A stretch of DNA of 64,000 nucleotides from Gammaproteobacteria bacterium (GCA_003599485.1 QZKM01000019.1:9806-73805), one strand, 5' to 3'; counted from the first letter of the stretch, positions 438 through 28,135 are shown. Translations and numbers: made by a program. The notes: a model not told the origin generated them from the sequence alone.

Positions 438-1436
438 CTAACTAAGCCCATTAGGGTGGTATAGGACGATGCGACTGCCGGTGTTTTCAAAATGAAATGG
501 CACGTGGACTAAATGGGTTAACTGACTTTTGACTTGCTGCTGGTTCTCCAGCGGAACATAAAGCAGTAGAAATCCACCGCCGCCTGCACCCAGTATTTTA
601 CCGCCCAAGGCGCCGCTCTTTAGTGCTTTCTCATAAATCTGATCAATGGTTAAGTTCGAAATCTTGTCGGAGAGGGATTTTTTATATCGCCAAGCCTCGT
701 CAAGAAGCCGTCCGAAATCATCCAGGCTATTCTCACCCCCATTGAGGATGGAGAGCGCCTCGCCAACCATTTCTTCCATGCGCCGCAATTCCGGCTCGCG
801 CTTTTTGAGATTTTCGATCTGAGTTTTGGCGACCTCGGAGGAAAAACGCGATATGCCGGTGAAGAACAGCATTAGGCTACCCTCCAGCATCTCCAGTTTG
901 GATTTCGGAAGAACCACCGGCACGACATCATAAGTGTTATCCCGTTTGAACTCGATACGATTGAATCCGCCGTGTGCCACGGATATCTGATCCTGCGATC
1001 CTACATTTTCTTTCAACACATCCTGCTCGATGTGGATGGCGTTATTAGCAAGCTCCTCCTTCGAGATATACCGGCCATTCAGAGCCATAATGGCGTTGAT
1101 GAGACCCACCGTAAACGATGAGCTGGAGCCCAGACCAGAGCGCGCCGGTAGGTCGCCATCGTGATGGATTTCGAGCCCCCTGTTGCACTTGAGCCATTCG
1201 AGCACTGCCTTGGCGGCGGGATGTTCGATCTGGGATATTTCCAGTGCATTCTCAATCTTGGAATAAACCACCCGGTATTTATGCTCGAAAAAAGGTGGCA
1301 GATACCGGCAACTGATATAGCAGTATTTATCGATGGTGGTAGCCAGCACCACGCCGCCGTTCTCACGGAACCATGCCGGATAATCCGTCCCGCCCCCGAA
1401 GAACGAAATACGAAATGGCGTCCTGCTGATGATCAT
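438..1436 (-). CDS. hddA: GHMP-family sugar kinase, HddA-like (D-glycero-alpha-D-manno-heptose-7-phosphate kinase family)
   Basis: PFRISFFGGGTD N-terminal motif, PARSGLGSSS ATP-binding motif, GGKILGAGGGG motif. Confidence 0.85.
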   Translation of the reverse strand: MIISRTPFRISFFGGGTDYPAWFRENGGVVLATTIDKYCYISCRYLPPFFEHKYRVVYSKIENALEISQIEHPAAKAVLEWLKCNRGLEIHHDGDLPARSGLGSSSSFTVGLINAIMALNGRYISKEELANNAIHIEQDVLKENVGSQDQISVAHGGFNRIEFKRDNTYDVVPVVLPKSKLEMLEGSLMLFFTGISRFSSEVAKTQIENLKKREPELRRMEEMVGEALSILNGGENSLDDFGRLLDEAWRYKKSLSDKISNLTIDQIYEKALKSGALGGKILGAGGGGFLLLYVPLENQQQVKSQLTHLVHVPFHFENTGSRIVLYHPNGLS

Positions 1437-1458
1437 GACATGCCGGCCTCCTGCTTCG

Positions 1459-2952
1459 TCATGAGTAGAGTTTTCGCTTTAGCTTGATGCGGGTCATTTC
1501 CTGTATATGCCTGACGACATCCTCTCCGAACTTCAGTCTGACCATATCAAGATAGCGGGGGTTGTTGAAGTATTTCATAAACGCCTCGTCCCGGAACTTC
1601 AACACCTCCGCCGGCCTCAGGACTTCCGTCGGCAGCGGCGTGGTTTCATAACTGTGCTGCGAGTAGCCTATCCATGAATCAGGCAGTTCCCAGCCTTTTT
1701 CCACCGCCATGCGGTAGAGCGGGGAGCCGGGATAGGCCATGGTGGAGTAAAAATTGGCAAACTCGCAGTTAGCCTCTATGGCCAGGTCCAGCGTCTCCTG
1801 CATGGACTCGTACGTATCGTCCGGCAAACCGAAAATATAGTTCCCGATTACGTAAATTCCCGCACTCTGAATTTTTCTCACGACTTCGAGAATCTGCGGC
1901 GTACCGAAGCGCCCCTTCTCTACTCCATCGCGCACGTGCTTACTGCCCGATTCGATGCCCAGCGCCAGCCAACGGAACCCGGCGCGCCGCAGCTTGTCCA
2001 GAAACTCGTCCTTGACCGTATCCACGCGCGCATACGCCCAGATATTCAGGTCATAGCCCCGTTCGATGATCCGGTCACAGATACCGAGGACATGGTTCCG
2101 GTTCAGCACAAACATCTCGTCCACAAACTTGATATTGCGCACGCCATACTTGTTTACCAGCACATCAATCTCCCTGATGACCGTGTCGGGCGACCACATA
2201 CGGTACGAGGGCTTCCCGAAGGGAGCATTGATGCAGCAAAACGAGCACTTATACGGGCAACCAAGGCTCGTATGCAGGGAGACATAAGGCGAACGCTCGT
2301 GGATGCGCTCGAAGCAATGCCAGTTGTGCGCCCGGTATTTATCCATCGGCAGCAGGTCCCAGGCCACCCCCGGCATTTCATTATCCAGGTCATCCATCAA
2401 CTCGCCCGGAGGATTGGCAACGATTCGCTCACCATCGCGATACCAGAGGCTCGGTATACCGCTGAATCTCGGTCTCGATGATTTCAGCGCGAGCGTGGCT
2501 TGCAGAATGGTCTGCGGTCCTTCCCGGTCGCACACATAGTCAATGTTTTCCTCGCGCATGGTTCTCTCTGGTAGAGCTGCGGGATGGGTACCGGTCATCA
2601 TGATCTTGTAGTTTCTATCCAATTCCTTGAGCGCGGCACAGGTTTCACCTGCGGCCGGCATGTTTTGCGTGGAAGCGGACGGCTGAAACCCATAGACCAC
2701 CATCACAATAAGCACGGGGTTGTAATTCTCCGCGACAAGCCGGGCAACACCCTGCGGACCCAGGTTGTGCGCCGGAGCGTCAATAATGGCGACAGACAGC
2801 CCCTTATTCCTTGTATAACCCGCAAACAGGCCGGCTAATGAAGGGGGCTCGATAGCCGAAAAGCTGTCGCCCAGTTCTTGATAAACGGCCGACCGGCTCC
2901 CGGGATTGATGAATAACACATCAACATCTTTTTTCACTACCATAGATTCCAC
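1459..2952 (-). CDS. Cobalamin-binding radical SAM protein (class B methyltransferase-like)
   Basis: N-terminal B12-binding-type region (PPSLAGL...GTHPAALP), CPYKCSFC cluster motif, FVDEMF, GIESGS, NYIFGLP. Confidence 0.9.
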   Translation of the reverse strand: MESMVVKKDVDVLFINPGSRSAVYQELGDSFSAIEPPSLAGLFAGYTRNKGLSVAIIDAPAHNLGPQGVARLVAENYNPVLIVMVVYGFQPSASTQNMPAAGETCAALKELDRNYKIMMTGTHPAALPERTMREENIDYVCDREGPQTILQATLALKSSRPRFSGIPSLWYRDGERIVANPPGELMDDLDNEMPGVAWDLLPMDKYRAHNWHCFERIHERSPYVSLHTSLGCPYKCSFCCINAPFGKPSYRMWSPDTVIREIDVLVNKYGVRNIKFVDEMFVLNRNHVLGICDRIIERGYDLNIWAYARVDTVKDEFLDKLRRAGFRWLALGIESGSKHVRDGVEKGRFGTPQILEVVRKIQSAGIYVIGNYIFGLPDDTYESMQETLDLAIEANCEFANFYSTMAYPGSPLYRMAVEKGWELPDSWIGYSQHSYETTPLPTEVLRPAEVLKFRDEAFMKYFNNPRYLDMVRLKFGEDVVRHIQEMTRIKLKRKLYS

Positions 2953-3008
2953 CCGATCCTCCCTCCCTTTGTCCTGATCCTCGCGTACTCGCTATTCTAA
3001 AGACATGG

Positions 3009-3713
3009 CTAGCGCCAACAGAACACTTCCCTTAAAAACTGGAAATAATACGCCGCGCCCCATTTTAGTACTTTCAGTTTTCTCTCTCCACCGATCCGTG
3101 GCGGCTCGTCACCGGGTATTTCGGTGATTTTGAGCTTTCGTTTTGCGGCACGCACGGACAGGAGCGGCTCCCAACTGATCCGGGTGCGGAATAACCTCTC
3201 TGCGGCCGCATAACCTTCGTCCTTCTCCAGCTCGAGGTCATAAACGACTTGCTTCTTGTACGCGCGGAAGATCACCATCGCATCAGTGTAATAACCGCCG
3301 TGCAACAGATTCACGGTGCGCGTAAAAAGCCAGTTCCCGAAGCCGGTAACAATGTCATCATCCTCGCTTTTCGCATCACCCAGATATCTGGAGGCAATCA
3401 CCATGTCATACCCTTCCCGCATCTTGTCAATTAGGGGAGGAATCAGTTCCGGAATGGAGTTACCGTCGGGACTGAAGGTGATGATAACGTCGCCTTCCAC
3501 ATAAGGAAGCACCTCGTTATAGGCATGCCGGAAGCCGGGGCGTTTCTGCACATATACCTCGTATCCCTGTTCCCTCGCCCATTCGATGGTGCCGTCGGTG
3601 GAACCGCCGTCGAGGACGATGATCTGGTCGCACCAGTCGCGCCTGACCCGTGGCATAATTGCCTGCATGCCGCGCAATTCATTTAGAGTTAGAACCAGTA
3701 GTGTTGTTTTCAT
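3009..3713 (-). CDS. GT2 glycosyltransferase, short DPM1/polyprenyl-phosphate glycosyltransferase-like
   Basis: TLNE, VLDGGSTDGT, FSPDGNS, MVIASRY, EPPRIGGERKL motifs; 234 aa. Confidence 0.85.
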   Translation of the reverse strand: MKTTLLVLTLNELRGMQAIMPRVRRDWCDQIIVLDGGSTDGTIEWAREQGYEVYVQKRPGFRHAYNEVLPYVEGDVIITFSPDGNSIPELIPPLIDKMREGYDMVIASRYLGDAKSEDDDIVTGFGNWLFTRTVNLLHGGYYTDAMVIFRAYKKQVVYDLELEKDEGYAAAERLFRTRISWEPLLSVRAAKRKLKITEIPGDEPPRIGGERKLKVLKWGAAYYFQFLREVFCWR

Positions 3714-3751
3714 TGGTTGATTGACTCAATGCAGGGTAGACGTCATCCCGT

Positions 3752-4546
3752 CTATTTTGAGAGCCTCCTGATCACCATCTTCAGCGCCACGAGCAGAACC
3801 ACAGCCAGCGATATGGCCAGCATGTTCTTTACCAGTGGGTAGGCGTTTCCGTCGAGAGCGATCCCTCTGAGGGAGGAACCTATGGCTGCGAACAATATGC
3901 TTAGCGGCAAAATGGAGAGCATGGTAGTGACGATATAACGGCTGAACCTGATCCTCGTCAACCCAAAGAAATAGCTGGAAGGCCCGAACGGGAAAATCGG
4001 GTTGAGACGGGCAAACGCCACCGCTTTCCACTCTTTGCGCTGTATCTCTTCCTTGAGCCAGGTCCAGGCGGAATGGCTGAACTTCCTGTTGAGGTAATCC
4101 GAGCCCAGATGCCGTGCGGCCAGAAAAGCGCATGCCGAACCCGCGCCGGCGCCGATTACCGTCAGAGCACCGCCCCAATAAGCGCCCCATATCAGCCCGG
4201 CGCCCAAATTCAACGGCAAGGTCGGAACCAGGCACACCACCATAATGGCATAAACGACGATAAAACCGGCAGGGGCGATAACAGGATGGGATTTAAGGAA
4301 GAAAACAATACTATCTGGCGCAAAATAGCCCTGCTGCCGCAGGATAAACAGCAGGATCGCCAGCCCGAAGAGAGCAGCCGCCAGCATAAAGCGCTTGCGC
4401 CGGATAACCTTCCGGACAACGTCCAGAAACGAGAAGATACCTCTTTTCCCGTTACGCTGTGATTCAAATACCGATGCGTCTTGCACATCTGCGGGATCAA
4501 ACAGGACGTCGCCGCTGTCTTTGTTTTCTTGGGGTTCGAGCTTCAT
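3752..4546 (-). CDS. DedA/TVP38/TMEM64 (VTT domain) membrane protein
   Basis: LPLNLGAGLIWGAYWGG, FLAARHLG, ARLNPIFPF, YFFGLTRIRF motifs. Start placed at 4546, where ATGA overlaps the NUDIX stop. Confidence 0.85.
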   Translation of the reverse strand: MKLEPQENKDSGDVLFDPADVQDASVFESQRNGKRGIFSFLDVVRKVIRRKRFMLAAALFGLAILLFILRQQGYFAPDSIVFFLKSHPVIAPAGFIVVYAIMVVCLVPTLPLNLGAGLIWGAYWGGALTVIGAGAGSACAFLAARHLGSDYLNRKFSHSAWTWLKEEIQRKEWKAVAFARLNPIFPFGPSSYFFGLTRIRFSRYIVTTMLSILPLSILFAAIGSSLRGIALDGNAYPLVKNMLAISLAVVLLVALKMVIRRLSK

Positions 4547-5121
4547 CTCAGCATGTTTTGATATTGAAAATACGCAATGAGCGTGCATGGGTCCTGGATT
4601 TCACCAGTATCATGCAGGGCAGCGACTTGCGCCGGTTCAAACCAACGGAATTCCTTGTGGCCGAATTCATCGCCGCTGAAGGGCCTGATTGCCTGGCAGC
4701 GCCGCGCTGCAAACAGATGCACGCGCGCCGCGAGAATTCCTGGTTCCGGTGCAATGACCCCCAGTGACTCGATGTCGGCATCCGTACACGACAAGCCGGT
4801 TTCCTCCTCCAGTTCACGGATCGCGGAACTACGATCCGGCTCACCGGGATCAACAAAACCTCTTGGAACTTCCCACAGATGGCGCTGAATGGCGTGCCGG
4901 TAGATGTGCAGCAGCCCTAATTTTCCATCAACGATGGGCAGCACGGCTATCCCGGTGATGAGATCGCCTATTTTGATCTTCGGTGCAACGACCAGATAGT
5001 CATGGATGCTTTCACCGTTCGCGCCCTCCACGTCATCCAGAAATACCTCGAAGCGGCTGTTTTCACAGGCCAGTCTCCGTTGGCGCAGTGCGTGAAAATC
5101 TTTTTCGTTGCCATGAGCCAT
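4543..5121 (-). CDS. NUDIX hydrolase (NDP-sugar/ADP-ribose pyrophosphatase-like)
   Basis: Nudix box GFVDPGEPDRSSAIRELEEETG. Start placed at ATG 5121 (MAHGNEK), just after the upstream stop at 5129. Confidence 0.88.
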   Translation of the reverse strand: MAHGNEKDFHALRQRRLACENSRFEVFLDDVEGANGESIHDYLVVAPKIKIGDLITGIAVLPIVDGKLGLLHIYRHAIQRHLWEVPRGFVDPGEPDRSSAIRELEEETGLSCTDADIESLGVIAPEPGILAARVHLFAARRCQAIRPFSGDEFGHKEFRWFEPAQVAALHDTGEIQDPCTLIAYFQYQNMLR

Positions 5122-5128
5122 ATGTACT

Positions 5129-6337
5129 CTAGTCGTGTGCTGTCCTATATCGTTCAACAAGCAATTCGGAGAAAGCAAAGGCGCTGGTAAACGCTGGAGA
5201 AATAGCGTTGAGCACATGCAGCGACGAAGGCGTGCTCTCAACGACAAAATCCATTTCGAGCTTTTGCGTGCGCAGATTGACCAACTGTGGCCGGATACCC
5301 ACCTTCCCGGAAGGGAGGAAATCATCCGCCATGATATCAGGAACAAGCCGGCGCGTGGCTTCAATGAAATGCGTTTTGCTGTATTTTCCGATTTCGCTGT
5401 GCACCATGCGCCGGAAACTCCTCTGATTGCGCAGATAAAGGCGGGCGAGATGCCAGCCGACCCTCATTCCCTCTCCAAGCCGGATGCCTTGGAGCACGCC
5501 GTAATTTTCCCGCCCGAAGGCCGGTATGGCCGTGGGTCCGGCATAGACATCACCGTTGATGACGCGCGTCAGATGCACACCCAGAAAAGGCAGCGATATA
5601 TCCGGCACCGGATAGATATTGCTTCGGACAAGATTCACTCTTTCCTTGCGTAACTTGTAATAAAGGCCCTTGAACGGCAGCAACGTATAATCGCGGCATA
5701 ATCCGAATTTCCTCGCGATCAGATCCGCGCTGGCCCCGGCGCAATTGAACACATATCCATAGGAATACTTGCCGGAGGAGGTAAAAAGGCATTTGTCTTT
5801 TTCAGCGACATCCGTCACTGTCCGGTTCAGGGCGAAGTGAACACCGGATTGCGTCAGGAGTTCGCGCAGCTTTTCAAGAACCGACCAGCTGTCGATAACC
5901 GCAGTATCCGGGCTGTATATGCCAACACGGTAAGGATTGGCATAAGGCTCGATCTCCTTGACCCCCTTTTCGTCCAGTTTTTCGGCGCGAATGCCGCTGT
6001 CCCGCGCATTCTGAAGCAGGCGTTCGACGGTGGGAATATCCTGCTCGCGCGTGGCGATAATTACTTTGCCGGAACGCCGGTACGGAATGCCGTGCTCATC
6101 AGCGAACTCCATCATCCGGAAAGCGCCTTTGGAACAGACTTTGGCCTTGAGCGTGTCCGCACCATAGTATATGCCGGAATGGAGCACGCCACTGTTGCGT
6201 CCGCTCGCGTGCCTGCCGAGCGCCGGCTCCTTTTCCAGCACTGCAACGCTGGCTTTCGGAAAGTGTTTCTTCAGTTCAAAAGCAGTGGTCAGACCGATAA
6301 TGCCCGCACCAATGATGACAAAATCAGAAGAGGACAC
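5129..6337 (-). CDS. lhgO: FAD-dependent oxidoreductase, L-2-hydroxyglutarate oxidase (LhgO) family
   Basis: IIGAGIIG, ASGRNSGVLHSGIYY, IYPVPD..PFLGVH, GIRPQ, LNAISPAFTS. Confidence 0.8.
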   Translation of the reverse strand: MSSSDFVIIGAGIIGLTTAFELKKHFPKASVAVLEKEPALGRHASGRNSGVLHSGIYYGADTLKAKVCSKGAFRMMEFADEHGIPYRRSGKVIIATREQDIPTVERLLQNARDSGIRAEKLDEKGVKEIEPYANPYRVGIYSPDTAVIDSWSVLEKLRELLTQSGVHFALNRTVTDVAEKDKCLFTSSGKYSYGYVFNCAGASADLIARKFGLCRDYTLLPFKGLYYKLRKERVNLVRSNIYPVPDISLPFLGVHLTRVINGDVYAGPTAIPAFGRENYGVLQGIRLGEGMRVGWHLARLYLRNQRSFRRMVHSEIGKYSKTHFIEATRRLVPDIMADDFLPSGKVGIRPQLVNLRTQKLEMDFVVESTPSSLHVLNAISPAFTSAFAFSELLVERYRTAHD

Positions 6338-6361
6338 AGGACAGATGCATCGTGGAGCGCG

Positions 6362-7315
6362 TTAAATGTTGCCGTATCTGGTGTTGCAGATCATGGTATA
6401 ACCCTTGATCAGCTCCTGAATGCCGAAATCGAGCGAGCACACCGGCTTGAACCCTGTGCCCTCGATCTTGGCGTTGGAGACAATGTAGTTGCGTTGATCC
6501 GGGTCCTTGCCAACGGGTGCATCGAGAAAAACAAATTCCGGCAGATGCTTTTGGATCGCCTGGCACAGTTCTTTTTTGGATACGTTGGCATCCGAGAGTC
6601 CGACATTGTAAATCTGGCCTTTCATCCTGCCGTAATTATTGATGGCGTGCAGAAACACGCGCGCCACGTCCCGAACGTGGATATAGTTGCGCTTGAACTG
6701 GCTCTCAAACAGCACCACGAAGCGGTCGTAGACCGCGCGATAAGTGAAATCATTAACCAGCAGGTCAATGCGCATGCGCGGCGACATCCCGAACACCGTC
6801 GCCAGCCGGAAACTGATGGCGTTCGGGTGCTGCATGAGCGCCTTTTCGATTTCAACCTTTTCTATCGCATACTGGGAAATGGGCCGCAGCGGGGATTCCT
6901 CAGTGCAGAAATTGTTCTTATCGCCCGTTCCATACGCGCTGTTTGTCGTGGGCATGAGCACAATCTGATCCTTGCTCAGCAACTTCAACATCATCGTGAT
7001 GGCGTCATGATTGGTCGTGGTAGCGCCGACGGGGTCCTTGCTGCACAGCGGCGCGCCCACGAGTGCCGCAAGCGGAATAATAATATCGGCGTTTTTTATC
7101 AGCGGCCGCATGGTGCTCTCCACGCGGATGTCTCCGCAGACCACACTGAAATTGGGATGGTGGCAGACATGTGCCAGACTGTTCTGGCCAAACATAAAGT
7201 TGTCCAGTACAGTGACTTTGTGTCCCGCGTCCAGCAGTTCCGGAACCATGGTCGAACCCAGATAGCCCGCCCCGCCTGTAACCAGAATATTGTGCCTCAT
7301 ATCTTTTCCTTTCAA
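6362..7315 (-). CDS. NAD-dependent epimerase/dehydratase (extended SDR)
   Basis: TGGAGYLG, YAIEK (YxxxK), RLATVFGMSPRMRIDLLVNDF. Confidence 0.9.
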   Translation of the reverse strand: MKGKDMRHNILVTGGAGYLGSTMVPELLDAGHKVTVLDNFMFGQNSLAHVCHHPNFSVVCGDIRVESTMRPLIKNADIIIPLAALVGAPLCSKDPVGATTTNHDAITMMLKLLSKDQIVLMPTTNSAYGTGDKNNFCTEESPLRPISQYAIEKVEIEKALMQHPNAISFRLATVFGMSPRMRIDLLVNDFTYRAVYDRFVVLFESQFKRNYIHVRDVARVFLHAINNYGRMKGQIYNVGLSDANVSKKELCQAIQKHLPEFVFLDAPVGKDPDQRNYIVSNAKIEGTGFKPVCSLDFGIQELIKGYTMICNTRYGNI

Positions 7316-7345
7316 GTTCTAAGCTGTGATGACTGCATGAAATCC

Positions 7346-8053
7346 CTACGCGCGCGGCAATAGAGCGGCGGCGCGCCGGTAATCCTCCGGTATACCGATA
7401 TCAATGAACCGGCCAAAAGACGGGAAACCATACATACGTTTGCCAGCCACCAGCATGCGCGGATACAGTTGGTCCTCGATCGAAACCGGCTCATTAGATT
7501 CCGGAACCATGCCGGCAAAGGCGTACCTCTCCGCCAGGTAGACCCCCCCGTTGATCAACGCCCGGCCTGAAGTTCGCGCGCGATTATCAAAAGCCGTTAT
7601 CTTTCCATCCTTATCAATCTCTACGCTGGCATAACGGCTGTTGGCCTCCACTTCGCGCAAGGCGATGGTCACCTCTGCGCGCCTGTCCTGGTGATAACGG
7701 CGCATCAGCGCCAGATCAACTTCAAAAAAGGTATCGCCGTTCATAACTAAAAACGAATCTGACCCACGCAAGCCCTCCAGTGCCAGCAGCAATCCGCCAC
7801 CTGTCCCGCGCGGCTGCTCTTCCACGGCATACACCACTTCGGCCTCCTTGTGCCGCGCGCTAAAATATTCCTCGATGATTTGGCACTTGTAACCGACCGA
7901 CAGTACAAAACGGCTGACACCCTGGCCGGCCCAGTAGTTGAGCAGATATTCCAAGAAAGGACGGCCGTTGATGGGCGCCATCGGTTTGGGCACATCCGGC
8001 ACTACCGCCTTGAGTCGGCTGCCCACCCCACCGGCGAGAATAATGGCCTCCAT
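7346..8053 (-). CDS. hddC: Sugar-1-phosphate nucleotidyltransferase, HddC-like guanylyltransferase
   Basis: ILAGGVGSRL, PKPMAPINGRPFL, GTGG, VMNGDT, INGGVY, FIDIGIPEDY. Confidence 0.8.
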   Translation of the reverse strand: MEAIILAGGVGSRLKAVVPDVPKPMAPINGRPFLEYLLNYWAGQGVSRFVLSVGYKCQIIEEYFSARHKEAEVVYAVEEQPRGTGGGLLLALEGLRGSDSFLVMNGDTFFEVDLALMRRYHQDRRAEVTIALREVEANSRYASVEIDKDGKITAFDNRARTSGRALINGGVYLAERYAFAGMVPESNEPVSIEDQLYPRMLVAGKRMYGFPSFGRFIDIGIPEDYRRAAALLPRA

Positions 8054-8064
8054 CGGGAGTGGAT

Positions 8065-9234
8065 TTAATCCACCGCTTTTGTCAGCACTTCATGAAAACG
8101 CATGATCTGCGGCGTGATATCGTGCGGATGGTTGCCGACAAAAAATCCGCGGTCATGGGCGGTATTGGCGTTCGTGATATGCCCCACGCATTCATAGTCA
8201 AAATATTTGATAACGTCATGGCGCAGGAAATTCCCACCCGTGATGATGCGATAACCGATATCCGCCTGTTTCATGGCATTCATGACCTTCTTACGGTCAA
8301 TGTTAAATTCGGGGTTGAGAACCACCGTAAAGGCGAACCAGGAGCTCTTGCCGTTCTCGCGCTGAATGATAAAGCGCTCGTCGCTCTTGAACAAATCTAC
8401 AAATACACTGGCATTGCGCCGCCGCGTCTCCACCATCACATCCAGTTTCTTCAACTGCTCCACGCCGATCGCGCCACTCAGCTCAAGTGGTCTGGCATTG
8501 TAGCCCGGCAGAATGAAGCGGTATGCCTCGAAAAAATCGTCGTCACGCTTCTCGTAAATCGGGCTGTCCGCCGGGACATCGCGCGTCCAGCCGTGCGCGC
8601 GGATAGATCGCGCAAGGTGATACAGCCCCGTATCGTTCGTCACTAGCACACCTCCTTCCATGGTCGAGATGTGATGGGAGAAAAACGTGCTGAAAGTACC
8701 GATGTCGCCGAACGTTCCACATGGTTTTCCACCGAGCTCCGCGCCCATAGACTCGCAGTTGTCCTCGAACAGATAAAGGCCGTGCTTGTCGCAAAACTTG
8801 CGCAGGACATCGAGCGCACAGGGATTGCCCAGAATGCTGACCGCGACAACCATTCGTGTACTGGATGTCAGCGCCTTTTCAAGCTGCGATACGTCCATGT
8901 TCAGCGTATCAAGCTCCACATCCAGGAACTTGAGCTTCAGACCATACTGCTGAAGCGGATAATAGGTCGTGGCCCAAGAGATCGAAGGGACAATCACCTC
9001 GTCGCCCCGTTTAAGCGGGCGCTCCTTCTTGTAAAAGAGCGCAGCGATGCCGACCAGATTCGCGGTGGAACCGGAGCTGACCATGAGCGCATGCTTTACG
9101 CCGAATTTCTGGGCAAAGGCCTCTTCGAAACGCTGAACGTTCTCCCCCATGGTGAAGCGGCCGCCAGCGATGACGCGCTGGATGGCCTGAATTTCCTCAT
9201 TGCCCCAGGAACTGCTGGCTAGTTCGTAGTACAT
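8065..9234 (-). CDS. colD: PLP-dependent GDP-4-keto-6-deoxy-D-mannose 3-dehydratase (ColD type)
   Basis: DegT-family fold with His at the usual Schiff-base Lys position (TFFSHHISTMEGG). ColD-like N-terminus (YELASSSWG), EDNCESMGA, RAHGWTR, PGYNARPLE. Lacks the Cys-rich Fe-S motif of DdhC/E1. Start placed at 9234. Confidence 0.85.
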   Translation of the reverse strand: MYYELASSSWGNEEIQAIQRVIAGGRFTMGENVQRFEEAFAQKFGVKHALMVSSGSTANLVGIAALFYKKERPLKRGDEVIVPSISWATTYYPLQQYGLKLKFLDVELDTLNMDVSQLEKALTSSTRMVVAVSILGNPCALDVLRKFCDKHGLYLFEDNCESMGAELGGKPCGTFGDIGTFSTFFSHHISTMEGGVLVTNDTGLYHLARSIRAHGWTRDVPADSPIYEKRDDDFFEAYRFILPGYNARPLELSGAIGVEQLKKLDVMVETRRRNASVFVDLFKSDERFIIQRENGKSSWFAFTVVLNPEFNIDRKKVMNAMKQADIGYRIITGGNFLRHDVIKYFDYECVGHITNANTAHDRGFFVGNHPHDITPQIMRFHEVLTKAVD

Positions 9235-9253
9235 GCTTCCCCTTTGCAAAAAA

Positions 9254-10291
9254 TTATTTTTTAACCATCTCCCTGATGACGCCAGCGACCTTCTCTGCAT
9301 CAGGATAGTAAAATTGCTCCAGCGTATAGCCTGCCGGCGTTGGAATGTCTGGAAGACCTACGCGGCGCACCGGCGATTTAAGGTAATCGAACCACTTTTC
9401 CGCGGCGAGACATCCGATCTCGGCACACACGCCTCCCATTGCCCAGCCGGTGTCCACCACCAATATCTTTCCGGTTTTCTTCAGGGATTCAGCGATGATC
9501 TGCTCGTCAAGCGGCTTGAGCGTCCGCAGATCAATGATCTCGCTCTCAATGCCATCGGCGGCGAGTTTGTTGGCCGCCTGCAAGGCGACTTCCAGCGCAT
9601 GCGAAGCGCCGACGATTGTGATATCGCTGCCGCGGCGGCGATAAATTCCTTTTCCCAGCGGCACGGTATAAAAACCTTCGGGTACCGTCCCGTCTTTTTT
9701 CATCAGCCAGCGATGCTCGAAGATCAGCACCGGGTTGTTGTCGGCGATCGCTGCCAGCATAAGTCCTTTGGCGTCGTATGGCGTGCTCGGCATCACGATT
9801 TTCAGGCCCGGCACCCCGAGCAGAAGTCCCTGAATGGACTGGGAATGCTGCGCGCCGGAACCCCATCCACGACCGATAGCAGCCCACACCACCATCGGCA
9901 CCGTGGTCTGGCCGTTGTCCATATAGTGGTACTTGGACGCGTGCGTCACCAGCTGATTGAAGGCGAGCAGAATGAAGTCAGGGCGGTTATGCATATACAC
10001 CGGCCGCATGCCGTTCATGGCCGCGCCAGTACAGACGCCCATCATTCCTTCTTCGGAGAGGGGGGTGTCGAACACGCGTGCGGCGCCGTATTTTTCCTGC
10101 AACCCCCTGGTGGTTCCAAACATGGCGCCGGGGTCATCCACGCCCTGCCCCAGAACGAACACGCCGGGGTCATGTGCCAGCGCGATGTCGAGCGCCTCAT
10201 TGATTGCTTTGGCGTAACCGAGAGATCTACCCGTGCCCGGGTCGGGCGCCTCATACACGAGCGAATTGACTAGACCTTCATCCCACGGCAT
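9254..10291 (-). CDS. ThDP-dependent 2-oxoacid dehydrogenase E1 beta subunit-like / transketolase C-terminal protein
   Basis: VFDTPLSEEG, GSGAQHSQ, PSTPYDAKGL, IFEHRWL, IDLRTLKPLD. Confidence 0.9.
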   Translation of the reverse strand: MPWDEGLVNSLVYEAPDPGTGRSLGYAKAINEALDIALAHDPGVFVLGQGVDDPGAMFGTTRGLQEKYGAARVFDTPLSEEGMMGVCTGAAMNGMRPVYMHNRPDFILLAFNQLVTHASKYHYMDNGQTTVPMVVWAAIGRGWGSGAQHSQSIQGLLLGVPGLKIVMPSTPYDAKGLMLAAIADNNPVLIFEHRWLMKKDGTVPEGFYTVPLGKGIYRRRGSDITIVGASHALEVALQAANKLAADGIESEIIDLRTLKPLDEQIIAESLKKTGKILVVDTGWAMGGVCAEIGCLAAEKWFDYLKSPVRRVGLPDIPTPAGYTLEQFYYPDAEKVAGVIREMVKK

Positions 10292-10312
10292 GACGTTTGT
10301 TCTCAGGGGTTA

Positions 10313-11338: not shown

Positions 11339-11447
11339 GCTGTTACAACCGGAAAAAAGCCATTACTCTAACTGGAGAATGCTTTAAAAACGGAAATATC
11401 ACACGATCGGGATACTGGCCGCGGACCGCTCCGGCCGCCAAGCCGGG

Positions 11448-12473: not shown

Positions 12474-12494
12474 GCGGCACCCCTGTTCATTTCG

Positions 12495-21203: not shown

Positions 21204-21227
21204 TGCTGTTCATTTCAAAAGGCCGTG

Positions 21228-21995
21228 TCAGCTGGTTCGGCACAGCCAGGCGCCGGGCCAGTGGGTAACATTTTCACGCAATTCGCTCTCATTGAATGGC
21301 CAGGGCGGCTGTTCGATCACAAACTCCGGGTGACTCTGGGAAAACTCAAGCGCGGCGGCGGAGGGGTGATCCCATGTCCAGTCGCGTTTGCCCCGCGGAA
21401 CATCATGCAGAAACTGCATGCTCCCATCCGTCGCCACGATGTAGGAACCCGGCGATACCAGGTCATGGTACGCATTCAGTTCCTCAAGAACATGTTGCTT
21501 CGTGTGGCAGGAATCCAGAATAACGAGCACCCGTTCACCAGGCCGGATCAGCGCTTTCACCTGAGCGACGGTATTCTTATCAATAGAGCTGCCTTCTATC
21601 AAGGCAATAAAGGGGGTAAGCTCATGCTCTTCGATCGCGCGCCGGTTGTGCTTGCGAATTTCGATATCCACGCCAATGACGCGACCTTTGCCCATAGCCT
21701 TGCACAGGCTGGCGTAGAAAATCAGTGATCCACCATGAGCGACTCCAGTTTCCAGGATGACATCGGGCTTGATGCGGTAAACCACCTCCTGGATACGGAT
21801 CAAGTCCTCAGGAAGCTGGATCACGGGCCTTCCCATCCAACTGAACGTGTAGGGATACTTCTGGTCCCATCCGACCTTCAGCCATAGGTGCGAGATCAGT
21901 TTGAAAGCCTCCGGGGAATAGAGCGCATATTCATGGGAACCTTGATTGTCTTCGTTGACAAGAGTCTTGTGATCCGTATCGATAAGTAATTTCAT
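21228..21995 (-). CDS. CmcI (cephalosporin hydroxylase / rhamnosyl O-methyltransferase) family protein
   Basis: WMGRPVIQLPED, KPDVILETGVAHGGS, ILDSCH, YIVATD. Start 21995 gives an ATGA overlap. Confidence 0.88.
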   Translation of the reverse strand: MKLLIDTDHKTLVNEDNQGSHEYALYSPEAFKLISHLWLKVGWDQKYPYTFSWMGRPVIQLPEDLIRIQEVVYRIKPDVILETGVAHGGSLIFYASLCKAMGKGRVIGVDIEIRKHNRRAIEEHELTPFIALIEGSSIDKNTVAQVKALIRPGERVLVILDSCHTKQHVLEELNAYHDLVSPGSYIVATDGSMQFLHDVPRGKRDWTWDHPSAAALEFSQSHPEFVIEQPPWPFNESELRENVTHWPGAWLCRTS

Positions 21996-22924
21996 AGCGC
22001 TTCTTCTGTTTTTATTCCATCTTCCCGTTTCAGGGAATTCTTCCACCATTCGACCGTATGCCGCAGGCCGAAGTCCAGGGTGTAGACGGGATTCCAGCCG
22101 ACCTCCCGGGCCAGACGCGCGGTATCCGCATACATGACCAGCGGCTCGTTGGAGGGGGCGGGCAGCGCGCCGAAATCAACCCTGTCACGACACCCCAAAA
22201 TGTCACCAATCTTTGCTGCAATTTCCCGGATCGCCACCGGTTGCCCAGAGGCAATATTGACCGGACCGATCACTTCACTTTTCAGCAACGCGACAAGCGC
22301 GCGTGCCGCATCTTCAACATGCAGAAAATCCCGCGAGTGAAGCCCGGGGCTGCATTGTGCATGCTCCCCCACCAGCAATGAGCGGGTCGCGGCCGCCACC
22401 AGCCGCGCCGGATGTTCGTGCGGACCGTAGAGAAAGAAAATCCTCGCCCATGCATGACTGAGGCCGGCTTCAGTTGCAAACCGGTCCACCAAGGTATGCA
22501 GGCCGTGCTTGCATAGGCCAAAAAACGAGGTCGGCCGACACGGTGTGACATATTCCGAATATCGTCCCTCGACCCACTCATATTCAGCGCAGGTGCCGGC
22601 AAAGATTGCCCGCTTTCCACCGTGCCGAGCAAATTCGCGCGCCAACAGCAACGAGGCTGCTACCCACTCCAGGTTCTCCGGGGCGCTCCAGTACTTTTTC
22701 GGAACGGTGTACCACGCGAGATGCAGGAGATGAGTCGGCTTGACTTCCTCCACCAGCCGGGAGACGGCACCGGGCGCAACCAAATCGACGGCATGCCAGA
22801 TAACGTTGGTAGAGTTTTGCGGTGGCTGACGCCCGACCGCATGCACATCGCTCCCCCTGCCAGAGAGAAGCGCAATGCAATACTGTCCAATAAATCCAGA
22901 TGCGCCAGTAACTAATACACGCAT
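21992..22924 (-). CDS. NAD-dependent epimerase/dehydratase, probable NDP-4-keto-sugar reductase
   Basis: TGASGFIG, HLAW, GTCAEY, atypical FGLCK at YxxxK, RIFFLYGP, RDFLHVED. Confidence 0.85.
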   Translation of the reverse strand: MRVLVTGASGFIGQYCIALLSGRGSDVHAVGRQPPQNSTNVIWHAVDLVAPGAVSRLVEEVKPTHLLHLAWYTVPKKYWSAPENLEWVAASLLLAREFARHGGKRAIFAGTCAEYEWVEGRYSEYVTPCRPTSFFGLCKHGLHTLVDRFATEAGLSHAWARIFFLYGPHEHPARLVAAATRSLLVGEHAQCSPGLHSRDFLHVEDAARALVALLKSEVIGPVNIASGQPVAIREIAAKIGDILGCRDRVDFGALPAPSNEPLVMYADTARLAREVGWNPVYTLDFGLRHTVEWWKNSLKREDGIKTEEAL

Positions 22925-22952
22925 TATGGCTGGCTCCAGCGCTTAGGGGAAG

Positions 22953-24227
22953 TTAACGTATCCTGTATAATGTCTCAAAGAACTTTTTCTGCACTATTGT
23001 GTTGCGGCTATAGACGATTTCCCACCCCGGCGGTACCGGATACTCTTCCTTGCGAATGACCATGTTATCGCCCGTATTCACCGAGGTTACCCATTGTTTG
23101 CTATAGAAATACCCGTGCGTCATTCGACTGATCTGGAACAAATAATTCCTGATTTGCTCTAACCGCATCTCACCCAGCGAGCTGATATTAAGGAATAAAT
23201 TGAAGTGTTTGTCAGGAAACAGCTCAATCTGCTCTGGAAGGAAGAATGCAATATCTGACTGTTCATAGCCCTTCCGGATATCCTCGAAATTCCGGAATGA
23301 TTGCACTTTAAATATTTTTTTATCTGGAAAAACGTGGCTCAGATACCATTGGGAGACGTAAATTGCTGGCGGAATGTCGAAGACTACGTATTTCATGCCC
23401 GGACTTGCCTTCAGAAACATGTAGGCTGACCTTCCATAGCCGGCGCCCAGTTCCCCGATAATTGCTCGCTCCGGCAAATCAGATATACTGGAGATGCTGT
23501 AATATTCGATCAGGGAATTGCAGACATCCTGCGATGTGCGCATGTTTTTGTAATATACTGGCCAAGGATTACCCAGCGAGGGCTCTTCGATCCGGTCAAA
23601 TAGCTGCTGCCGGTCGACCGATCTCGCCGCCTCGATCAGTCCTGCCATAAAGAGGCGGTAAATAAACCGATTTTGCGGGGCGGACCCCACGTCGTCCGTG
23701 AGCGGGGCCGGTATGCGAATTTTCATGAAATGGTTCAAGACTGCAAGAGGGCTGGCGTGGCGCAGCACCGAGATAAGCTGATCGTCGCGCAGTCCGATCT
23801 TCCACTGAAAATACCCCAAGTTGACCGAGCGCTTGAAATTGGAAACGCCGTTTTCCTTGATCCATCGCAGGTGCAGCAAAAAAAGGTTTTCCCACAGTTT
23901 GGAGGCGCGGTACAAAGATGGGGAATTGGAATAAAGCTTGACGATTCCATGCAGTTCGGAATATTCGTCACGCGCAGATTCTTTCTGGATCTCAGCCGAC
24001 TCATATAGCAGATCGATCTTCTCAACGGCTCTCGCCAGCCTGCGTGAGACTCTGTTCCAGTAGCACTTGGCCTTGTTTGCGACGACTATCAATCCCACGC
24101 CAGCCGCCATCAAGAGATACGGCCCGACACTCGTCCACGCTATCTCAGGAAAATGGACAATCTCCAAGTCCGCCATCAGGAGCCCAATCCCTCCAAGAAT
24201 AATCAACAAGCCGACAATATAAGCCAT
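22953..24227 (-). CDS. Putative sugar O-methyltransferase (TIGR04371-like) with N-terminal TM segments
   Basis: ELGAGYGR, FDIPPA..SQWYL, FLNISSLGEM..EQI..Y. Confidence 0.75.
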   Translation of the reverse strand: MAYIVGLLIILGGIGLLMADLEIVHFPEIAWTSVGPYLLMAAGVGLIVVANKAKCYWNRVSRRLARAVEKIDLLYESAEIQKESARDEYSELHGIVKLYSNSPSLYRASKLWENLFLLHLRWIKENGVSNFKRSVNLGYFQWKIGLRDDQLISVLRHASPLAVLNHFMKIRIPAPLTDDVGSAPQNRFIYRLFMAGLIEAARSVDRQQLFDRIEEPSLGNPWPVYYKNMRTSQDVCNSLIEYYSISSISDLPERAIIGELGAGYGRSAYMFLKASPGMKYVVFDIPPAIYVSQWYLSHVFPDKKIFKVQSFRNFEDIRKGYEQSDIAFFLPEQIELFPDKHFNLFLNISSLGEMRLEQIRNYLFQISRMTHGYFYSKQWVTSVNTGDNMVIRKEEYPVPPGWEIVYSRNTIVQKKFFETLYRIR

Positions 24228-24260
24228 ATCTTTTAATAATAACGGTTCAGATTCGGGATA

Positions 24261-24989
24261 TTAATTCACCGACCGATGAACTTGGCGGAGTATCCGTCCG
24301 GTAGCCTCCACCATTTCCAGCGTCGTGATCGTGTAATAGGGTTCGTTTGTGCGGAACGCTACCAGTTGCCGCCGCGTGATCAAGCGGGGGAGAAACTCCT
24401 TTTCAAACGAGAAATTATGCGCGGGCATCCCTGGCACCATTCCCTTATCCAACAGGAAAAAACCAATATCCACACCCTGGTGTTCCGCGCCCGCCGGAAT
24501 GGCGCCGTAGGACAGCACGTATCCGTCTTTTGACATGTGGATATTGTTCCGAAAACCGTATTCTCCCCTGCCATCCCTATTGTTATACACGGTCACCATC
24601 ACTGGCGCGGCCATTTTTTCATAGGTGCACGTCATCTCATCCAGCGGAAGCGGCCAGTAATTATCACCGTACATTAGCAGGAATCTGTCGGCCAATAACG
24701 CCTTGGCGTTCCGCACACGGGTTCCGGTTTCGTCGTCCACCGTGCCGATGGAATACCGGATGCGCAGGCCGAATCGGCCTCCGTCGCCAAAGTATTCGGT
24801 AATTTTCTCGGGGAGATAGCCCAGCAGCATCACGATCTCGGTGATGCCGCTGACGCGCAACCGCTCAACCAGGTATTCCAGAAACGGGCGCTCATTCACA
24901 GGCACCATGGGTTTCGGAAGATTGTTGGTGAGCGGTCGCAGGCGCTCGCCCCTGCCGCCGGCCAGAATGACCGCCTGGTTGATTTGCAT
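24261..24989 (-). CDS. Second sugar-phosphate nucleotidyltransferase
   Basis: VILAGGRGERL, PKPMVPVNERPFL, ETGTR, LMYGDNY. Start placed at 24989 (TGATG overlap). Confidence 0.88.
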   Translation of the reverse strand: MQINQAVILAGGRGERLRPLTNNLPKPMVPVNERPFLEYLVERLRVSGITEIVMLLGYLPEKITEYFGDGGRFGLRIRYSIGTVDDETGTRVRNAKALLADRFLLMYGDNYWPLPLDEMTCTYEKMAAPVMVTVYNNRDGRGEYGFRNNIHMSKDGYVLSYGAIPAGAEHQGVDIGFFLLDKGMVPGMPAHNFSFEKEFLPRLITRRQLVAFRTNEPYYTITTLEMVEATGRILRQVHRSVN

Positions 24990-26023
24990 CAACCCGTCCA
25001 TCTCAAGTCGGGATTTACCTTGTGCTCATCGAGCAGATACCGAATCTGTTTCAGACGGATGCAGTCTCTACCGCGAAACTGCTCTTCGGTAAAGTTGATA
25101 CGGCGGAATAAACCCACCAATTCCTTTCCTCCTCGGTCGAGATCCCATTGCGGCTTGTAGTAATCCTTCAGCCGCGTGAGTATCTTGCGGAAGCTCACCC
25201 GGTAGGTGCGTGAGTCGGCGCCATGCTCGCCGGTGAAGATCAGAGTACTTCCCGGTACGGACCGCTGGGCCGCCTCGGCCAAGTCACGCACGGTGTAATT
25301 ACCGTTCATGATGCCAATGTTGAACGATTCGCCAGCCACGAGCTCCCGTGGCGCTTCAAGACAGGCGATGAATGCATTTGAGACATCGCGGACGTGGACC
25401 ACCGGACGCCAAGGCGTGCCGTCGCTCTTGATTTCTATCTTTCCAGTCGTGTAGGCGCAGGCCACCAGATTGTTAAACACGATGTCGCAGCGCAGGTTCG
25501 GGCTTGCGCCGAATACAGTGGATGGTCGCAAGGCGGTAATGGTGAAGCCGTCGCCGCTCATACGCATCAGTTCGATCTCGGCGTCCCATTTGGTCCGGGC
25601 GTAGGCCGTAACGGGGATTTTCTGGCTACTGTCTTCTTCCACTTCCTGACTTACATCGGCAATGCCATACATGCTCTGGGAGGAAGCATAGATGAATCGT
25701 TTTACTCCCGCTTCCCTGGCGCACAGGGCGAATAACAAGGTCCCGCGGAAATTGATATCTTCTGTAAGACCGGGGGCCAGTTCTCCAAGCGGATCGTTTG
25801 AAAGGCCAGCCAGATGCATCACAGCGTCAACGCCGCGCAGATCGTCACGGGTGACATCACGGACATCCTTGCATATCTGACCGTGTATCTTTGGATAGGC
25901 ATAAAGCTCACCACCGGCATAATAGCCGGTGTCGTAGCCAATGACGGTATGGCCATTCTGCATCAGCATCTCACACAGAACCGGTCCGATATAACCTTTG
26001 TTTCCTGTTACCAGAACGTTCAT
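24989..26023 (-). CDS. NAD-dependent epimerase/dehydratase (extended SDR)
   Basis: TGNKGYIG, HLAGLSND, YARTK, RPSTVFGASPNLRCDIVFNNL. Confidence 0.9.
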   Translation of the reverse strand: MNVLVTGNKGYIGPVLCEMLMQNGHTVIGYDTGYYAGGELYAYPKIHGQICKDVRDVTRDDLRGVDAVMHLAGLSNDPLGELAPGLTEDINFRGTLLFALCAREAGVKRFIYASSQSMYGIADVSQEVEEDSSQKIPVTAYARTKWDAEIELMRMSGDGFTITALRPSTVFGASPNLRCDIVFNNLVACAYTTGKIEIKSDGTPWRPVVHVRDVSNAFIACLEAPRELVAGESFNIGIMNGNYTVRDLAEAAQRSVPGSTLIFTGEHGADSRTYRVSFRKILTRLKDYYKPQWDLDRGGKELVGLFRRINFTEEQFRGRDCIRLKQIRYLLDEHKVNPDLRWTG

Positions 26024-26616
26024 GCTTGCTCGGCCAGATAGTCGAAATAGTCTTTGAAGTACTTGGTCATAAGATGAAGGATCACGCCGTGCACGCTTTC
26101 GACCAGTTCATACTGACCTTTTTCACTGGGAATCCGGATCTTAGCATCGGCCAGTGGGTCGAGGCCGCCGCCGTCGAAGCCCGACAGCCCGATGACTGGA
26201 ATCTTGTAGCGCCTGGCCAACTCCACCGCCTTGATCACGTTGGGCGAATTTCCCGAGCTTGAGATCGCGATCACCGTGTCCGAATCCTGTATGTAATTGT
26301 GCAGTGGCCCGGCGAAAACCATATCAAATCCGACATCGTTGGCCCACGCCGTAAGCTCTTCCTCCGTCGTCGGCAGGCGTATCGCCTGGAAGCGGCGGCT
26401 GTGCTTGTCGAGGTGGTGGCTAAAAACCGTTTTGTTAAAATCGCTGACCCAGTGTGTGGCGAGAGCCAGAGAGCCGCCGTTGCCGAACACGTAGATGCGG
26501 CCGTCACGTTCGTACGTTGCCTGCAGGATATCCAGCGCCTTGGCGATTTCTTCCTTGGGCAGGTCGCTCAGAGCAGCGATGACGTGCTGCGAGAAGTTTT
26601 GTATGTACTCTTCCAT
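26020..26616 (-). CDS. gmhA: SIS-domain sugar-phosphate isomerase, GmhA-like (divergent active-site residues)
   Basis: GNGGS, AWANDVGF, AISSSGNSPNV, SGFDGG. Confidence 0.7.
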   Translation of the reverse strand: MEEYIQNFSQHVIAALSDLPKEEIAKALDILQATYERDGRIYVFGNGGSLALATHWVSDFNKTVFSHHLDKHSRRFQAIRLPTTEEELTAWANDVGFDMVFAGPLHNYIQDSDTVIAISSSGNSPNVIKAVELARRYKIPVIGLSGFDGGGLDPLADAKIRIPSEKGQYELVESVHGVILHLMTKYFKDYFDYLAEQA

Positions 26617-26622
26617 TGCCGT

Positions 26623-27648
26623 TTAACTGGGGATCACGCGGTGGGTGGAGTCACCGTTCACCAGCACTTCCACACCGGACTGCACAAAACGCACGGGAAC
26701 CTCGTTGAACCGGCCGAGCCCATGCGCATGGGCCACACCGCGCAAAGCCTCCCGGATGGCGGCATGTTGTTCCAGCGGCGCGATGAACAGGATGCAGCCG
26801 CCGCCTCCCGCTCCCAGTACCTTGCCCCCCCATGCCCCGTGCTCCATGCCCGCATTATACATGGCGTCGAGCGCCGTATTGGACACGTTCGATGCCAGTG
26901 TCCTCTTCTTCATCCACGTGGCGTGCAGCATCCGGCCGAGTTGCTCAAACTCCCCGCGCAACAGGCAGTCACGGAATTCCAGAACGGAATCGGCCATCTC
27001 CCGCAGAGTGGCGAAATTTTTTGCCGTGCCCGCCTTCTGCTCCGCCAGCACGCTCGATGCAAGACGCGTGATGCCGGTGAAGAAAACCAGGATGTGCCGC
27101 TCAAAATGCAGACGTCTCTTGTAATCCAAACGCAGTGGGATGACATCTACAGACTCGTCCGGATTGAACCGGTAAATATTGAATCCGCCGAATGCTGACG
27201 CATACTGATCCTGTTTTCCGATCGGTTCCCTCACGAGATCAATCTCCAGCCGGCAGGCTGCCTCGGCTGCCTCCCGCTTGTCCATGCGCCGACCCTGGGA
27301 CATATACAGACCCTTCATGAGCGCAACCGAGAAACTCGATGACGAGCCTAACCCGGCATTGACGAATACGTCGGTGAACGTCGCCACCTCGATGTTGCTA
27401 TGGATGCCGAGATCGAGCAGCGCTTCGCGGATGCGGTCATTCTTGAGCATCGAGGGATGATCTACCATCTCGCCGATGGAATACCGGGCCGATACCTCGC
27501 GCACCAGTGGCGGGCGGTTGATCGCGACATACACATATTTGTCAATCGCGGTCGAGAGCACGAGGCCAGGCGAACGCCGGTAAAAATCAGGGAGATCAGT
27601 CCCCCCTCCGACGAAACTGATGCGCATCGGTGCGCGGACAATCAGCAT
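26623..27648 (-). CDS. Second HddA-like GHMP sugar kinase
   Basis: PMRISFVGGGTD, AGLGSSSS, GKQDQY, GGKVLGAGGGG. Confidence 0.88.
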   Translation of the reverse strand: MLIVRAPMRISFVGGGTDLPDFYRRSPGLVLSTAIDKYVYVAINRPPLVREVSARYSIGEMVDHPSMLKNDRIREALLDLGIHSNIEVATFTDVFVNAGLGSSSSFSVALMKGLYMSQGRRMDKREAAEAACRLEIDLVREPIGKQDQYASAFGGFNIYRFNPDESVDVIPLRLDYKRRLHFERHILVFFTGITRLASSVLAEQKAGTAKNFATLREMADSVLEFRDCLLRGEFEQLGRMLHATWMKKRTLASNVSNTALDAMYNAGMEHGAWGGKVLGAGGGGCILFIAPLEQHAAIREALRGVAHAHGLGRFNEVPVRFVQSGVEVLVNGDSTHRVIPS

Positions 27649-27663
27649 GAGTATTCCTTGGGG

Positions 27664-28131: not shown

Positions 28132-28135
28132 GGCA

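Follow-up and report, generated by a model that had tools for sequence, protein, structure and literature searches.

A surface-polysaccharide locus with two heptose-tailoring cassettes, probably served by a housekeeping GmhB phosphatase encoded elsewhere in the genome

How can a locus carry two sets of genes for the activation of a higher-carbon sugar and yet lack the phosphatase that this activation requires? The question is raised by a stretch of 64,000 nucleotides from a Gammaproteobacteria bacterium (GCA_003599485.1, QZKM01000019.1:9806-73805), hereafter called the window. It corresponds to C3:9806-73805, C3 being a 75-kb contig of a 1.69-Mb genome assembled in 50 contigs and estimated to be 96% complete. 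An earlier note, drawn from the sequence alone, had described here two kinases, two nucleotidyltransferases (NTases) and two short-chain dehydrogenases/reductases (SDRs), and all six coordinates proved to be those of exact minus-strand open reading frames. From the gene content, homology and synteny of the locus, and from a gmhB gene located elsewhere in the genome, we consider it rather probable that two heptose-tailoring cassettes have been joined in one locus, that they produce two modified nucleoside-diphosphate (NDP)-heptoses and that the housekeeping GmhB serves both in trans as 7-phosphatase.

The two kinases belong to the HddA/WcbL family of GHMP heptokinases. Kinase 1 (438..1436, minus strand), from a distinct and highly conserved clade, and kinase 2 (26623..27648, minus strand), from a second clade, both contain the Pfam domains GHMP_kinases_N and GHMP_kinases_C and are 36% identical to each other. 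The best NCBIfam match of both was HddA NF049969, with 138.5 bits for kinase 1 and 141 bits for kinase 2, far under the cut-off of 600 bits. Their closest solved relatives were WcbL of Burkholderia pseudomallei (4USM/4USK; E 2e-37 for kinase 1 against 4USM) and the proteins of Bacteroides thetaiotaomicron (3K85) and Campylobacter jejuni (4N3O). Both kinases align with 4USM over their full length and have kept the R, the D in GGGTD, the GLGSSSS and the QDQ that correspond to WcbL R13, D22, S118-S120, Q162 and D163, residues whose mutation abolishes heptose-7-phosphate kinase activity (PMC4691232). The conservation of these essential residues argues against the direct, phosphatase-independent sugar-1-kinase that the earlier note had proposed for one of the two enzymes. 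As judged from their sequences, both kinases would make heptose-1,7-bisphosphate from heptose-7-phosphate.

Such a product calls for a GmhB-type phosphatase of the HAD family, and the earlier note was right that none is in view: we found none in the window, in the 9.8-kb left flank that runs to the start of the contig, or in the rest of C3, whether the called locus genes were scanned with Pfam and NCBIfam or the whole genome was searched with TIGR00213 and TIGR01656. The left flank in particular holds no HAD gene, contrary to the possibility that a gmhB lies just beyond the left edge and that both sets yield ordinary GDP-heptose. An iterated GmhB profile run over all six-frame open reading frames of at least 60 aa did not reveal any hidden or decayed gmhB. 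Indeed, a remnant of gmhB would find no space, since the genes for the SIS isomerase and SDR2 overlap by 4 bases and the gap between the genes for NTase 1 and SDR1 is 30 bases.

The search for HAD/GmhB genes that the earlier note had called for did recover a gmhB on another contig (C9:17697-18236, minus strand; 245.3 bits on NF006506, cut-off 178). This gene is located between glyS and an acyltransferase gene in the order glyQ-glyS-gmhB-plsC, with tsaD, dnaG and rpoD nearby. The glyQ-glyS-gmhB-plsC order is a housekeeping arrangement typical of proteobacteria. The rest of the ADP-heptose pathway for the lipopolysaccharide (LPS) core is also encoded in the genome, with gmhA on C1 (204 bits) and a bifunctional hldE (413 bits) beside hldD (434.6 bits) on C27, where GT9 genes lie close to the latter two. 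Likewise, a gmhB was present elsewhere in the genome in the five of five proteobacterial genomes whose cassette has no local gmhB. GmhA and GmhB are common to the ADP and GDP routes (PMC4691232), and the capsule GDP-heptose pathway of C. jejuni uses the GmhB Cj1152 from the LPS cluster (PMC10680097).

The proposed pathway would begin with the isomerisation of sedoheptulose-7-phosphate by the SIS enzyme of the locus and/or by the housekeeping GmhA. Each kinase would then convert its heptose-7-phosphate into heptose-1,7-bisphosphate, the housekeeping GmhB, which belongs to the ADP-heptose pathway of the LPS core, would act in trans to remove the 7-phosphate, and the NTases would supply one tailoring branch each, so that two distinct modified NDP-heptoses result. 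The substrates of these steps, the nucleotide that NTase 2 uses and the sharing of GmhB are what we infer.

To see the two sets among their relatives, we compared the locus with 80 genomic loci carrying kinase-1 relatives and 80 metagenomic loci carrying kinase-2 relatives (each designated below by L and a number). The locus proteins were mapped onto these fetched loci by tblastn, and iterated profiles were used for GmhB, SIS, NUDIX and the inositol-monophosphatase (IMPase) family. In the kinase tree (FastTree, 165 rows, without characterised HddA sequences), kinase 1 and kinase 2 fell in separate clades, the former in a clade of 81 rows (support 100, stem length 0.62) and the latter in a clade of 21 rows (support 95). 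Both window kinases were outside a classic clade of 53 rows, whose sampled members have the gene order SDR, NTase, GmhB, kinase, SIS and in which GmhB was near the kinase in 21 of the 22 loci of at least 12 kb. In the three classic loci that were checked (L123:8106-9317, L139:8682-9890 and L151:8679-9926), NTase and GmhB, about 55-75 bases apart, are encoded in a single open frame that directly precedes the kinase, in what looks like a fused NTase-GmhB gene.

The parallel formation of two higher-carbon NDP-sugars, as proposed in the earlier note, is thus supported by the separate kinase clades, each of which has its own tailoring genes elsewhere. Moreover, both sets are trimmed copies of widespread cassettes. 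Orthologous cassettes carry GmhB (L030-L032 for set 1; L100, L101 and L104-L106 for set 2), which again speaks against a phosphatase-free kinase. What is particular to the window is that both cassettes stand in one RfaH-headed locus and that neither has retained GmhB, while the first, which we call cassette A, lacks SIS as well.

Kinase-1 relatives 53-69% identical were found in Legionella, methanotrophs, Nitrosospira, Nitrospinae, Verrucomicrobia, a bacterium of the Candidate Phyla Radiation and a Methanoperedens metagenome-assembled genome (MAG). Among the 31 full-flank loci, the kinase-1 homologue was accompanied by an NTase in 28, a Cj1427-like SDR in 26, a DegT-family enzyme in 21, a B12 radical SAM enzyme in 17 and a pair of E1 genes in 9-10; the iterated profiles added SIS in 13, NUDIX in 9 and GmhB in 7 of the 31. 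The closest syntenic loci, L030-L032, have the order B12 radical SAM, kinase, E1 alpha, E1 beta, DegT, NTase, SIS, SDR, FAD flavoprotein, NUDIX, GmhB, aldolase-SDR, their GmhB passing the 178-bit cut-off of NF006506 with 195 bits. The gene set of the window is the same except for SIS, which is missing between NTase 1 and SDR1, at the 30-base gap, and for GmhB, which is missing after NUDIX. In a Chloroflexi MAG in which GmhB was not found at E 1e-8, the kinase-1 cassette includes an IMPase-family gene (L070:5621-6412, plus strand) adjoined by PdxA-like and NUDIX genes. This gene may stand in for GmhB without being homologous to it, a hint of non-orthologous replacement with a phosphatase still needed. 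An IMPase-family substitute in the window locus was sought with an iterated IMPase profile, and none was found.

The partners of kinase 1 also point to a heptose. NTase 1 (7346..8053, minus strand) is predicted to be an HddC-like heptose-1-phosphate nucleotidyltransferase, HddC NF049965 being its best match (190.7 bits). SDR1 (6362..7315, minus strand) matches PDB 6VO6/6VO8 over its full length (residues 8-316) with E 1.7e-112, which makes it a candidate NDP-heptose C4-dehydrogenase of the Cj1427 type; we take 6VO6 to be Cj1427, a GDP-heptose C4-dehydrogenase. Directly downstream of SDR1 is the gene (5129..6337, minus strand) for a flavin adenine dinucleotide (FAD) flavoprotein of the L-2-hydroxyglutarate oxidase type, scoring 343.7 bits on NF008726, above the equivalog-level cut-off of 299 bits. 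The same adjacency of SDR1 and FAD genes was observed in L030-L032, L036, L041 and L076. L-2-hydroxyglutarate is reportedly the by-product of Cj1427 turnover, and the flavoprotein probably regenerates alpha-ketoglutarate for the ping-pong oxidation carried out by SDR1. The position of an oxidase after SDR1 fits an alpha-ketoglutarate-driven turnover as in Cj1427, which oxidises GDP-heptose in an alpha-ketoglutarate-dependent manner (PMC10680097).

The counterparts of SDR1 and NTase 1 in the second set, cassette B, gave weaker matches to the same references. SDR2 (24989..26023, minus strand) is a distant relative of Cj1427 and is 27% identical to SDR1. A pairwise alignment shows the stretch ...TVFG.SP..R.D...N.. 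in both proteins, in line with the motif from which the earlier note had placed them in one subfamily, but we claim Cj1427-type membership for SDR1 alone because the top solved match of SDR2, again 6VO6, reaches only E 1.3e-26. NTase 2 (24261..25001, minus strand) is a sugar-1-phosphate nucleotidyltransferase (Pfam NTP_transferase) for which HddC NF049965, at 85.8 bits, is not the best model: mannose-1-phosphate guanylyltransferase gave 108.7 bits and MurU models also scored above HddC. The HddC cut-off of 300 bits was reached by neither NTase. Since NTase 2 is 29% identical to NTase 1 and has the lower HddC score, it could use a different nucleotide or a different sugar-1-phosphate.

The GmhA-like isomerase of cassette B (26020..26616, minus strand) is the only SIS gene that scans of the whole contig detected, as the earlier note had seen for the window. 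It scored 92 bits on gmhA TIGR00441, below the cut-off of 209.45 bits, and its best solved match was the phosphoheptose isomerase of C. jejuni (1TK9). The GNGGS, ND and SSSGNS motifs are kept, and the acidic residue that follows GNGGS..H is D, not E.

Kinase-2 orthologues were 57-70% identical, and SIS (70-81% identical) is encoded by the next gene in every locus of 7 kb or more (11 of 11). Orthologues of SDR2 (65-69% identical) were found in L100, L101 and L103, and full-length orthologues of NTase 2 (49-52% identical) in L100, L101 and L104; a fragment 74% identical to NTase 2 and covering 42% of the query stands at the end of L103. A C-methyltransferase 55-58% identical to that of the window lies upstream of kinase 2 in L100, L101, L103, L104 and L115, and homologues of SDR3 and CmcI come after NTase 2 in L100, L101 and L104. 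The order in L100 and L101 is C-methyltransferase, kinase, SIS, GmhB, SDR2, NTase 2, SDR3 ... CmcI. The window has the same order minus GmhB between SIS and SDR2, the two genes that overlap here. Of the 21 loci in the kinase-2 clade, many of which are short, 8 had GmhB close to the kinase; among those of at least 12 kb the count was five of nine. The GmhB genes of the cassettes scored 158-206 bits on NF006506.

The association of two kinases is not restricted to the window. In the metagenome contig Ga0182030_10000694 (L115:8727-19916), the C-methyltransferase, kinase 2 and SIS stand together with DegT, a Cj1427-like SDR, the B12 radical SAM enzyme and kinase 1, with one SIS and no GmhB in view. 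In L102, L114 and L117, a second kinase paralogue (about 35% identical) is located downstream of kinase 2 and SIS, directly after SIS in L102 and L117. Since kinase 2/SIS with a second kinase recurs in these four loci, the doubling is probably functional, perhaps through the use of different nucleotides.

Several points weigh against the sharing of a housekeeping GmhB by two heptose cassettes. The kinases, the NTases and the SIS of the locus are all far under the NCBIfam equivalog cut-offs. The kinase-1 clade stands on a long stem (0.62) and is associated with GmhB and SIS less closely than the other clades: only 7 of its 31 full loci have GmhB and 13 have SIS near the kinase. GmhB was not detected at E 1e-8 in two MAGs that carry kinase-1 homologues and probably have no LPS heptose, one of Levybacteria and the Chloroflexi one, both of which may be incomplete. 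LPS-type GmhB prefers the beta anomer, although the alpha anomer is still hydrolysed (kcat/Km of 10.4 vs 3.6 mM-1 s-1 for the Helicobacter pylori enzyme; PMC8204981). Finally, the retention of both kinases and both NTases would be unexplained if one pool of heptose-1-phosphate suffices.

The stem, the locus counts and the two genomes in which GmhB was not found could also be read as signs of an anomeric kinase, in kinase 1 alone or throughout its clade, that acts on a sugar without 7-phosphate, so that cassette A needs neither GmhA nor GmhB and passes a sugar-1-phosphate straight to NTase 1. Fucokinase and galactokinase, GHMP relatives that appear among the weaker NCBIfam matches, are indeed direct 1-kinases. 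We nevertheless hold this to be unlikely, because SIS and GmhB are both present in the closest syntenic cassettes (L030-L032, L036, L041 and L071), because kinase 1 is accompanied by an HddC-like NTase and by a near-orthologue of the GDP-heptose enzyme Cj1427, and because a gmhB exists elsewhere in all the proteobacterial hosts tested. The Chloroflexi locus without GmhB holds its IMPase-family gene, which suggests that a phosphatase is needed there too. The broader proposal that the kinase-1 clade is independent of a GmhB-type phosphatase, whether through a sugar without 7-phosphate or through unrelated phosphatases such as the IMPase-family protein of L070, seems to us similarly doubtful; if true, cassette A would be a shortened, undescribed activation route to a branched, radical-SAM-modified higher sugar.

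The same L070 gene, together with two large locus proteins without family match, gives some ground for supposing that a non-homologous phosphatase of the locus itself replaces GmhB, be it the 541-aa protein (19578-21203), the 569-aa protein (from 371 off the left edge) or NUDIX. However, no phosphatase family emerged from any family scan of the locus genes, no IMPase-family gene was detected among them, NUDIX is no substitute for GmhB since the two co-occur in L030-L032, and a bona fide gmhB is present in the genome; this explanation is therefore very improbable. It is somewhat easier to imagine, but still unlikely, that two cassettes were acquired horizontally and have left behind sets that are redundant in function. 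Their G+C contents are equally low (54.2% and 54.7%), the two kinases have the same catalytic residues, and the pruning of SIS and GmhB from the locus could mean that redundancy is being removed. Yet all four kinase and NTase genes are intact, kinase 2/SIS recurs with kinase 1 in the unrelated metagenome locus L115, and two kinases surround one SIS in L102, L114 and L117. We thus favour two heptose cassettes that depend on the housekeeping GmhB.

The remaining genes of the two cassettes, all on the minus strand, suggest what the tailoring branches would do. Cassette A (438-12473) comprises kinase 1, NTase 1, SDR1 with its oxidase, a 3-dehydrase-like pyridoxal-phosphate (PLP) enzyme, E1 alpha/beta and the B12 radical SAM enzyme. 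The latter (1459..2952; Pfam B12-binding and Radical_SAM) is a probable C-methyltransferase. The PLP enzyme (8065..9300), of the DegT family (Pfam DegT_DnrJ_EryC1), is a candidate RfbH/ColD-like 3-dehydrase that scored 266 bits on RfbH NF011936, below the 423-bit cut-off, and has orthologues 68-79% identical in L021, L030-L032, L048, L056 and L095. Next to it lie genes for a stand-alone thiamine-diphosphate E1 beta (9254-10291; Pfam Transket_pyr/Transketolase_C) and E1 alpha (10313-11338; Pfam E1_dh), a pair with orthologues 52-82% identical beside kinase-1 homologues. The longest frame of the NUDIX hydrolase (4543..5364; Pfam NUDIX at residues 139-252) overlaps the preceding gene (5129-6337) by 236 bases, and the domain begins at residue 139; because of this overlap, the true start is probably well downstream of 5364.

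Cassette B (21228-29386) comprises kinase 2, SIS, NTase 2, SDR2, a sugar C-methyltransferase, a cupin, SDR3 and O-methyltransferases. The C-methyltransferase is of the TylC3 type (28136-29386; Pfam), and the RmlC-like cupin (27664-28131; Pfam) has a weak likeness to GDP-4-keto-heptose 3- and 3,5-epimerases (E ~3e-7). Family scans identified SDR3 (21992-22924) and a CmcI-type O-methyltransferase (21228-22049), and a 424-aa putative sugar O-methyltransferase of the NanM type (22953-24227) had no Pfam match but scored 113 bits on TIGR04371, above the 44-bit cut-off. The methylation set of cassette B thus includes two O-methyltransferases and one C-methyltransferase.

The window covers most of a surface-polysaccharide locus of about 52 kb and of low G+C, whose genes are all on the minus strand, from the RfaH gene at its head (42580-43104; 152 bits on TIGR01955, which exceeds the cut-off) to about C3:761, beyond the left edge. 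The RfaH gene is followed by manC, gmd and fcl, and the locus also includes a MarR-EPS regulator, several glycosyltransferases, a GT9 heptosyltransferase-like gene, a Wzx flippase and a GT-C enzyme. In the left flank are the genes for the 569-aa protein, a GT4, Alg14/Alg13-like proteins, a carbamoyltransferase, a GT2, an SDR and an aldolase-SDR fusion. The G+C content of the locus (window 1-43104 plus C3:761-9805) is 54.9-55.2%, lower than in the whole genome (61.5%) and in the remainder of the window (61.7%). Such a low value is typical of horizontally exchanged surface-polysaccharide loci and consistent with horizontal acquisition. Kinase matches, 32-40% identical, were found in just 3 of 40 close relatives of the genome, and a vertical comparison was uninformative because most of these relatives have no such kinases.

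The locus has two GDP-mannose 4,6-dehydratase genes on the minus strand, a canonical one (39132-40271, 598 bits) and a short form (32765-33733, 347 bits, below the cut-off). We considered the latter as a DmhA-type heptose 4,6-dehydratase but found no support for this, since its best solved matches were ordinary short GDP-mannose dehydratases (those of Aquifex and the Pseudomonas aeruginosa Gmd). The GT9 heptosyltransferase-like gene (33767-34867) adjoins it. Also encoded on the minus strand (3009-4588 and 13628-15424) are a short GT2 with likeness to dolichyl/polyprenyl-phosphate hexose transferases (AglJ-like), a DedA/VTT membrane protein and a 598-aa GT-C enzyme (PMT_2-like). This combination suggests the transfer of one modified sugar to a lipid carrier and its addition on the periplasmic side. 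The two large proteins without Pfam or NCBIfam match, of 541 aa (19578-21203, minus strand) and 569 aa (C3:8467-10176, window 371 to beyond the left edge), may serve the locus as a polymerase or in another membrane role, a guess based for the former only on its position as neighbour of the flippase gene.

If the preferred reading is correct, the absence of gmhB from a cluster is no sign of a new activation chemistry in the polysaccharide loci of Gram-negative bacteria, the LPS-core enzyme being the default supplier. The remaining interest would be in two tailoring cassettes standing side by side, one predicted to lead to a 3-deoxy, carbon-branched heptose modified by a B12 radical SAM enzyme and the other to a C-/O-methylated heptose. 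As each cassette has a private kinase and NTase, the locus offers a compact template to reconstitute both pathways and lets the separation of two heptose pools be tested.

Among known systems, the lincomycin GDP-octose pathway (LmbR, LmbN, LmbP, LmbK, LmbO) shares the logic of isomerase, GHMP kinase, HAD phosphatase and guanylyltransferase. The lincomycin-type octose evoked in the earlier note nevertheless finds no support here: Pfam and NCBIfam scans of the locus genes detected no transaldolase family that could include an LmbR-type enzyme, the SIS is closest to solved phosphoheptose isomerases, and SDR1 is Cj1427-like and heptose-specific by homology. The gmhA-wcbL-wcbN-wcbM genes of B. pseudomallei are nearer, WcbL being the best solved match of both kinases with its essential residues conserved (PMC4691232), but these capsule genes include their own GmhB (WcbN), as do the GDP-heptose operons of Aneurinibacillus thermoaerophilus and Yersinia pseudotuberculosis, unlike the window locus. 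The C. jejuni capsule resembles it in having a GHMP heptokinase, a small nucleotidyltransferase and a GmhA-like isomerase in the polysaccharide locus, with gmhB absent there and supplied by the LPS-core cluster (PMC10680097), and SDR1 is a near-orthologue of the solved 6VO6. In contrast, there are two kinase/NTase/SDR sets here and one in C. jejuni, the kinases and NTases of the window are about 30% identical to characterised ones and below the equivalog cut-offs, and the E1 alpha/beta pair, the B12 radical SAM enzyme, the TylC3-type C-methyltransferase and the L-2-hydroxyglutarate oxidase are not known in C. jejuni. Neither the activation logic nor the supply of GmhB from outside the cluster is new, whereas the tailoring chemistry, with its branched and C-methylated heptoses, is undescribed.

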